The notes beneath the pieces were generated by a model. The model worked only from the letters and a program-made list of their open reading frames with translations, was not told the DNA's origin and ran no database searches. Below are positions 26,175 through 26,412 of a DNA stretch of 44,071 nt, in pieces (position 1 is the first letter of the stretch; every line of letters starts with the position of its first letter). This DNA comes from Escherichia phage vB_EcoS-UDS3lw, in sequence record PQ658967.1; one strand, given 5' to 3'. Position numbers and translations under genes: made by a program.

Positions 26175-26198
26175 GAAAATCCCCTTTCGGGGATTATT
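26175..26198. terminator. bidirectional terminator-like hairpin
   Basis: AATCCCC-TTTC-GGGGATT between convergent genes. Confidence 0.45.
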
Positions 26199-26412
26199 CG
26201 CAGGTGGTGTTTTTGAAATGGTCTACAGACACGTACTGGAAGCTAAACGGATAACCCGCCCTTAGCATTTTATGCCCGGAGAAGTCCGCAACACCGAACA
26301 CCGGTACAGAATACTCCATACCACTATTCACATATGTTGCTTCGCAGATTTTTGACGGCATACCGGCACAACCTGACAGAAGAACCGCACAAATCATAAT
26401 TAAAGTTTTCAT
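26194..26412 (-). CDS. small outer-membrane lipoprotein, candidate superinfection-exclusion protein
   Basis: Signal peptide MKTLIMICAVLLSGC with lipobox; AGGAGA SD; opposite strand, next to tail fibre gene. Confidence 0.55.
   Translation of the reverse strand: MKTLIMICAVLLSGCAGMPSKICEATYVNSGMEYSVPVFGVADFSGHKMLRAGYPFSFQYVSVDHFKNTTCE

Follow-up and report, generated by a model that had tools for sequence, protein, structure and literature searches.

Among the phage exclusion lipoproteins described so far, those closest to the protein considered here are the Cor proteins. Exclusion has been demonstrated for the HK022-type, phi80, N15 and mEp167 members, which are only ~40% identical to the Cor protein of the present phage. 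The experimentally studied Cor proteins of the phi80, N15 and HK022-type lambdoid prophages (40-42% identical) share with it an invariant AG-PF and Cys pattern, and their genes stand in the same J/gp22/gp23/cor order. Lambdoid cor, however, lies on the same strand as the tail genes, carries a 3-4 residue insertion after the lipobox and is a lysogenic-conversion gene of temperate phages, whereas the phage studied here is virulent and its cor gene is inverted. In phage T1 the Cor protein (AAP49969, "lysogenic conversion protein Cor") is 51% identical over its full length, with an identical lipobox and three cysteines, and the locus likewise comprises J, a ~100-aa ORF, a ~225-aa ORF and an inverted cor gene, with a hairpin/terminator where the convergent genes meet. 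T1 nevertheless belongs to the Drexlerviridae and the present phage to Dhillonvirus, and the far side of T1 cor is occupied by recombination genes rather than by a lateral fibre gene.

According to Uc-Mass 2004, as relayed in bioRxiv 10.64898/2026.03.26.714494, Cor functionally inactivates FhuA. T5 Llp (PDB 8a60 chain B) is, like Cor, a small outer-membrane lipoprotein directed at FhuA, and the post-lipobox Cys of the two proteins aligns; yet their sequence similarity is marginal, and neither pb5, with which T5 recognises its receptor, nor the pb5 locus is related to the cassette of J and the 100-aa and 224-aa proteins. The action of Llp is allosteric: it attaches to FhuA on the periplasmic face, and the extracellular loops of FhuA fold inward (PMC9586334). 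Cor and Llp have been placed in one structural family with a likely similar action (PMC9586334; bioRxiv 10.64898/2026.03.26.714494; PMC13164509), and a disulfide is common to both (PMC9586334). An additional system is that of Rtp45 from phage Rtp, an LptD-directed exclusion protein for which the complex with LptDE has been solved (PMC12685063). The 2026 KanT1 paper (PMC13164509) reports a three-gene cor cassette in each of the 10 Drexlerviridae/Dhillonvirus phages of BASEL that use FhuA, and Maffei 2021 (PMC8594841) had already described, in broad outline, a modular exchange of these loci.

Cor-family membership, lipoprotein features and fold

The stretch of DNA analysed here, termed the window, is 44,071 bp long and represents essentially the entire genome of a Dhillonvirus (HK578/SO1-like) coliphage. 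Its initial 25 kb is 92-93% identical, at 99-100% query coverage, to Escherichia phages bob, PTXU06, Gluttony_ev152 and SECphi18, and the cor region aligns at 89-94% with SM_S22, Gluttony, Pride, JLBYU60, JLBYU37 and Envy, among others. The features that bear on the identity of the lipoprotein are listed below.

26194..26412, minus strand: cor, 72-aa Cor-family phage exclusion lipoprotein precursor (NF047972, PHROG 1119, tblastn matches to T1, phi80 and N15 Cor, annotated homologs in Gluttony and SSL-2009a)
26368..26412, minus strand: predicted signal peptide (residues 1-14) and lipobox Cys15 (L-S-G-C), from the lipobox rule and the invariant C15
26420..26424, minus strand: Shine-Dalgarno sequence AGGAG, 7 nt 5' of the cor ATG, read from the sequence and kept in three of four aligned phages
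~9118-9441 and 9329-9559, plus strand: embedded i-spanin/o-spanin pair, 83% and 78% identical to the spanins in the annotation of TheodorHerzl

On the minus strand, the cor gene extends from an ATG at 26412 to a stop at 26194. A listing of longest ORFs begins it at a TTG at 26475, which was discarded in favour of the ATG with its Shine-Dalgarno sequence, the start common to all homologs. Against the NCBIfam equivalog NF047972, "phage exclusion lipoprotein Cor", the product scores 58.4 bits (E 5e-16), where the curated cut-off is 31 bits, and residues 2-72 align to positions 2-77 of the 78-position profile. It also matches PHROG 1119, "Cor superinfection exclusion protein", with an E-value of 8.8e-27 (residues 1-72 on 1-75 of 78). 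Both values are far beyond chance, and the opposite-strand 72-aa ORF proposed in the initial annotation is thus real. Pfam has no family for the cor product, nor for its 100-aa and 224-aa cassette partners, so that the assignment of cor rests on NCBIfam and PHROGs; NCBIfam likewise has no family for the two partners.

Searches of the whole phage collection by tblastn placed the protein among the Cor proteins named above, with identities of 50.7% to T1 Cor (E 4e-14), 41.6% to phi80 Cor (E 2e-10) and 40.5% to N15 Cor (E 2e-9), each at a query coverage of at least 97%. Homologs, each covering at least 80% of the protein, were found in 242 of 50,697 phage records. The Dhillonvirus homologs are 82-93% identical and many of them are labelled Cor or super-infection exclusion protein, while further matches include HK022-type Cor proteins (~42%) and ES18 gp32. 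A search of the protein database with the single sequence returned only 6 near-identical proteins, owing to its word prefilter; an alignment of these 6 sequences was needed as the query to reach 205 homologs by profile search of a large protein collection, many of which carry the NCBI name "phage exclusion lipoprotein Cor".

The Cor/Llp-like exclusion lipoprotein suggested earlier is therefore a Cor protein at the level of sequence, as indicated by the two family models, the homology to the T1, phi80 and N15 proteins, the synteny and the T1-like opposite strand. Judged from its sequence, the ORF is an ordinary member of a known family and not a new one; it is annotated as Cor in several near relatives of this phage. 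Since the Cor family, the genomic cassette, the link to FhuA and the occurrence in Dhillonvirus have all been published, the locus raises no new question. Lewis 2023 (PMC10373560) holds no data on Dhillonvirus Cor.

The signal peptide and the lipobox LLSG|C15 were likewise recovered. The N-terminus, MKTLIMICAVLLSG followed by C15, conforms to a PROSITE-type lipoprotein rule coded for this analysis, the matching stretch being IMICAVLLSGC; it has Lys at position 2 and an uncharged core, which leads into L-S-G-C. The same rule holds in 47 of 48 Cor homologs. The fate of a bacterial lipoprotein, whether retained in the inner membrane or sent to the outer membrane, is decided by the residue at position +2 under the Lol sorting rule. 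This residue is Ala in the window Cor and Ala or Ser in all 48 homologs, with no Asp inner-membrane retention signal, and by the Lol rule the protein is therefore predicted to localise to the outer membrane. Mature Cor would thus consist of 58 aa from Cys15 onward, in the form of a lipidated outer-membrane lipoprotein.

The alignment of 48 diverse homologs shows eight invariant residues, M1, C15, C23, A52, G53, P55, F56 and C71. The AG-PF core motif and a second cysteine pair, C23/C71, are thereby conserved in all 48, and every one of them has exactly three Cys from the lipobox onward. C23 and C71 probably form a disulfide. Besides cor, the sole genuine lipobox ORF in the window is that of the o-spanin (lipobox MLSAC); the spanin pair is located directly after the minor capsid gene and not beside the holin/endolysin genes.

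An AlphaFold2 model of Cor, built on the 48-sequence alignment, has a mean pLDDT of 85.5, with values above 90 over residues 21-70, and predicts a four-stranded beta domain behind a signal helix. The top match of this model in a Foldseek search of the PDB is 8a60_B, the T5 Llp chain of the structure solved with FhuA (probability 1.00; TM 0.53 by query and 0.61 by target; rmsd 3.1 A over 57 columns, at 26% identity). The Foldseek E-value of this match is only 0.06, with small Tudor-like beta domains scoring not far behind. With these caveats, the predicted structure of Cor resembles the Llp fold. Llp was also the top PDB match in three sequence searches, all of them weak, with E-values of 0.39 for the single sequence, 5e-4 for the 6-sequence profile and 0.015 for the 48-sequence profile. 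The aligned region comprises the signal peptide and ~25 mature residues, so the similarity is carried in part by the signal peptide. Because the 48-sequence profile gave a weaker match than the 6-sequence profile, no membership of the Llp family is claimed at the sequence level.

The receptor-specificity cassette and its exchange

The genes surrounding cor form a cassette, the elements of which are as follows.

21741..25160, plus strand: gpJ-like tail tip protein (Pfam FNIII-A_GpJ and Phage_Tail_Tip), of which only the last ~46 codons (25022-25160) lie in the exchangeable cassette
25197..25499, plus strand: 100-aa cassette partner, homolog of N15 gp22, phi80 gp22 and T1 orf32 (PHROG 557, E 1e-32)
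25499..26173, plus strand: 224-aa cassette partner, homolog of N15 gp23, phi80 gp23 and T1 orf31 (PHROG 425, E 6e-70)
25022..26398, strand not applicable: receptor-specificity/exclusion cassette, distinct in Dhillonviruses of the FhuA type and of the LptD type (the blastn alignment with TheodorHerzl ends at 25021 and picks up again at 26399)
26493..28109, plus strand: lateral tail fibre gene, divergent from cor (PHROG 1980, Pfam PF13884, Peptidase_S74), annotated as lateral tail fiber in BASEL phages

Four genes, gpJ, the 100-aa ORF, the 224-aa ORF and cor, constitute the unit that cor closes, and the same order is present in T1 (orf33/32/31/cor), phi80 (gp21-24), N15 (gp21-24), Gluttony and PaulFeyerabend. 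The 100-aa protein is 73%, 70% and 54% identical to its N15, phi80 and T1 counterparts, and the 224-aa protein 64%, 57% and 52%. Both are nearer to N15 gp22 and gp23 (73% and 64%) than to the products of the same genes in the Dhillonvirus Bas15 (69% and 53%), which points to horizontal exchange. Inspection by eye revealed neither a signal peptide nor a hydrophobic segment in the two proteins. The binding of FhuA has been attributed to gpJ by Lewis 2023 (PMC10373560), as opposed to the two downstream ORFs by Maffei 2021 (PMC8594841).

The initial annotation had drawn on the placement of the lipoprotein gene beside a tail fibre or receptor-binding gene. The neighbour exists (26493-28109), but it encodes a lateral fibre, and the receptor role given to it does not hold. 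The module which co-varies with cor is located upstream instead, and consists of the gpJ C-terminus together with the 100-aa and 224-aa ORFs (Maffei 2021, PMC8594841). As for the lateral fibre itself, its N-terminal ~165 residues are conserved and its distal part varies between otherwise close relatives; it has internal near-repeats (QTDQIKTDTQAIK occurs twice) and a C-terminal Peptidase_S74 intramolecular chaperone domain.

The extent of the exchangeable unit is revealed by comparison with TheodorHerzl (Bas14), a Dhillonvirus recorded as LptD-dependent (Maffei 2021, PMC8594841). Its gpJ is 97% identical to that of the window over residues 1-1099, beyond which homology is lost, and no homolog of cor, of the 100-aa ORF or of the 224-aa ORF was found in its genome. 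Between gpJ and the lateral fibre, TheodorHerzl carries a 311-aa ORF and a minus-strand 76-aa lipoprotein, the latter a homolog of Rtp45 (E 2.9e-40 to PDB 9rps chain D). The Rtp45 homolog and cor agree in slot, strand, 80-bp intergenic region and first five codons (MKTLI), and both are exclusion lipoproteins paired with a receptor module. Their mature domains, in contrast, are unrelated, and the target of Rtp45 is LptD rather than FhuA. The window Cor does not belong to the Rtp45 type, in that the TheodorHerzl Rtp45 homolog gives no tblastn match in the window, and the Cor profile aligns to 9rps_D with an E-value of 4.1 through the signal peptide only, with no mature-domain homology.

The borders of the cassette are sharp. 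One falls at 25021/25022, ~46 codons before the end of gpJ, and the other at 26398/26399, within the first five signal-peptide codons of cor. Since the latter border lies inside the signal-peptide codons, Cor and the unrelated Rtp45 share their promoter region, Shine-Dalgarno sequence and MKTLI. Across four aligned Dhillonviruses, one of which has a different cassette, conservation of the 80-bp intergenic region between cor and the lateral fibre gene amounts to 97%. The comparison with TheodorHerzl thus identifies the place of the ORF as the exclusion-lipoprotein slot of the genus, filled by Cor in the FhuA type and by Rtp45 in the LptD type.

Hairpin and intergenic region

On either side of cor lie the following non-coding elements.

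26178..26195, strand not applicable: hairpin between the convergent 224-aa ORF and cor, likely a two-way terminator, overlapping the cor stop (folding, shuffles, compensatory conservation)
26443..26471, minus strand: candidate sigma-70 promoter of cor, read by eye, with -35 TTGCAA (26466-26471), a 17-nt spacer and extended -10 TGc-AATACT (-10 at 26443-26448)
26467..26476, plus strand: one copy of TGCAACCAAT, in the 80-bp cor/lateral-fibre intergenic region

The hairpin fills the 20-nt gap between the stops of the 224-aa ORF (26173) and cor, and its core stem of 7 bp, AAUCCCC/GGGGAUU, pairs positions 26178-26184 with 26189-26195 around a TTTC loop. Its folding energies of -14.6 and -14.3 kcal/mol on the two strands correspond to z ~ -3, with only 1-2 of 200 shuffled sequences folding equally well, in agreement with the bidirectional hairpin noted before. 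The stem exhibits compensatory changes, AUCCCC/GGGGAU in the window versus GCCCC/GGGGC in Gluttony, PaulFeyerabend and T1, and the T1 record annotates a rho-independent terminator at the equivalent place. In the terminator scan, the hairpin fell just short of the strict U-tract requirement.

The candidate promoter of cor agrees with the consensus at 8 of 12 positions, under the scan threshold of 9 of 12, and its sequence is conserved in relatives; transcription of cor is predicted to begin near 26436. The consensus scan itself called no minus-strand promoter upstream of the cor ATG. A sigma-70 promoter for the lateral fibre gene was also sought in the 80-bp spacer, and none that was convincing was found.

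All four elements that the initial annotation had placed here, namely the ORF, the lipobox, the hairpin and TGCAACCAAT, are present at the positions it had assigned to them. For TGCAACCAAT, its presence beside the ORF stands (26467-26476), but it is not a site specific to cor, as there are 18 copies in the window. Of these, 11 are exact and the remainder have one mismatch, as compared with 3.1 +/- 1.7 expected, and none of 100 shuffled sequences reaches 18. In TheodorHerzl, 16 sites were counted versus 3.0 expected, nearly all of them intergenic and at syntenic positions. The enrichment across the window thus marks TGCAACCAAT as a genome-wide motif.

The copies in the window start at 40, 71, 604, 3126, 10361, 10375, 26467, 29362, 29374, 31029, 31046, 33985, 33997, 40710, 43523, 43577, 43612 and 44020. 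They are often paired, either in tandem at a distance of 12-17 bp or as a palindrome (29362/29374), and several of them overlap or abut sigma-70-like hexamers, the copy at 40710 being situated in the spacer of TTGACA-18-TATTAT. The motif has the appearance of an operator used by an uncharacterised Dhillonvirus regulator, or of a promoter-associated element.

The observed junctions and the observed enrichment of the motif invite a joint speculation, namely that Dhillonviruses possess a fixed "socket" in which unrelated receptor and exclusion cassettes are swapped, and that TGCAACCAAT is the operator of a regulator. The body of gpJ would form one side of such a socket, and the intergenic promoter, TGCAACCAAT, the Shine-Dalgarno sequence and the first five signal-peptide codons would form the other. 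One recombination junction would then lie within the signal-peptide coding region of the lipoprotein, and Cor (for FhuA) and Rtp45 (for LptD) would be expressed from one common control region. TGCAACCAAT could in this case serve as the operator through which an uncharacterised phage regulator times the divergent cor and lateral-fibre genes. Taken as a whole, this combined proposal is rather unlikely to hold.

Receptor, proposed mechanism and alternatives

The receptor of the phage can be approached through its relatives. PaulFeyerabend (Bas15), GeorgBuechner (Bas16) and KarlBarth (Bas17) are FhuA-dependent (Maffei 2021, PMC8594841), and so are, by experiment, JLBYU37 and JLBYU60 (Lewis 2023, PMC10373560). 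The Cor proteins of JLBYU60 and PaulFeyerabend are 86-88% identical to that of the window (87.5% for PaulFeyerabend by tblastn), and JLBYU37 and GeorgBuechner show 89-91% nucleotide identity over the cor region (88.9% for GeorgBuechner); KarlBarth is absent among the matches listed. The Cor-bearing Drexlerviridae phages JulesPiccard and PaulSarasin are FhuA-dependent as well (Maffei 2021, PMC8594841), such that all Cor-bearing BASEL phages among the matches listed, PaulFeyerabend, JulesPiccard and PaulSarasin, are recorded as using FhuA. By analogy with these relatives, FhuA is the predicted terminal receptor of the present phage.

The most convincing account of the ORF, and one that we consider highly probable, is that it encodes the Cor-family exclusion lipoprotein of a virulent Dhillonvirus coliphage which employs FhuA as its terminal receptor. 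After infection, cor would be expressed in the direction opposite to the tail genes; its own promoter, weak and of the sigma-70 type, would lie in the 80-bp intergenic region, and the transcript would end at the shared hairpin. The precursor would be exported, lipidated at Cys15 and cleaved by signal peptidase II, and the 58-residue beta-rich domain may then bind FhuA from the periplasmic side. In this manner Cor would lock FhuA, as T5 Llp does, in a conformation that cannot be used by the tail tip, composed of gpJ and the 100-aa and 224-aa proteins. As a result, neither this phage nor other FhuA-dependent phages (T1, T5, phi80) would be able to superinfect the cell, and released progeny would be spared from loss on FhuA in cell debris. 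The initial annotation had pictured a masking of the outer face of the receptor; by analogy with the Llp-FhuA complex (PMC9586334), the block is probably allosteric and exerted from the periplasmic side rather than by a surface mask.

The choice of receptor is the point at which this account may be contested. The KanT1 paper (PMC13164509) reports Cor-like proteins from Markadamsvirinae that use BtuB and from one Tempevirinae species. Membership of the family therefore does not by itself reveal the receptor, and a lipoprotein of the Cor fold could block another outer-membrane receptor, such as BtuB or a different TonB-dependent transporter, in place of FhuA. The BtuB-linked Cor-like genes, however, are without one or both of the partner ORFs (PMC13164509), whereas every phage with the full J/100-aa/224-aa/cor cassette and a known receptor uses FhuA. 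Moreover, the closest relatives of the cassette, with proteins 86-99% identical, include the FhuA-dependent JLBYU60, JLBYU37 and Bas15. A receptor other than FhuA is accordingly improbable. The selected benefit of the same mechanism is a separate matter. Dhillonviruses are virulent and have no lysogen that needs protection, and debris protection may therefore matter as much as the exclusion of competitors. It is conceivable, if somewhat less than even in our estimate, that cor is selected for shielding new progeny from irreversible adsorption to FhuA in debris or vesicles, a role which has been stated for the Sie mechanism (PMC13164509), and not for competitor exclusion. The two roles are not mutually exclusive.

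Two readings that would deprive the ORF of any exclusion role were also weighed. Its small size, lipobox and predicted outer-membrane sorting are common to o-spanins, yet the window has its own i-spanin/o-spanin pair, recognised by its identity to the annotated TheodorHerzl spanins, and cor is neither nested in nor beside the i-spanin gene but sits between tail genes. A lysis function is hence extremely unlikely, and the o-spanin identity was rejected, as the protein matches Cor models and no spanin family. An ORF of only 72 codons without a Pfam family might also be a chance antisense frame that yields no product. Against this stand the full-length matches to two curated or clustered families (NF047972 and PHROG 1119), the invariant Cys and motif positions kept by more than 200 homologs, the Shine-Dalgarno sequence and the conserved flanks; the chance reading has next to no likelihood and was rejected on family statistics.

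The case of this locus indicates that a tool-free reading of sequence can spot a receptor-blocking lipoprotein from its lipobox, orientation and neighbours. With FhuA as the predicted terminal receptor and Cor as its predicted antagonist, infected or cor-expressing cells should resist T1, T5, phi80 and related phages. Such resistance, if it occurs as predicted, would be useful for the design of phage cocktails and for T1-proof production strains.

Three records labelled "Campylobacter phage" with C. jejuni as the host (MG065637, MG065640 and MG065688) contain T1-like Cor genes ~50% identical to that of the window, and look like coliphage contamination or mislabelling.
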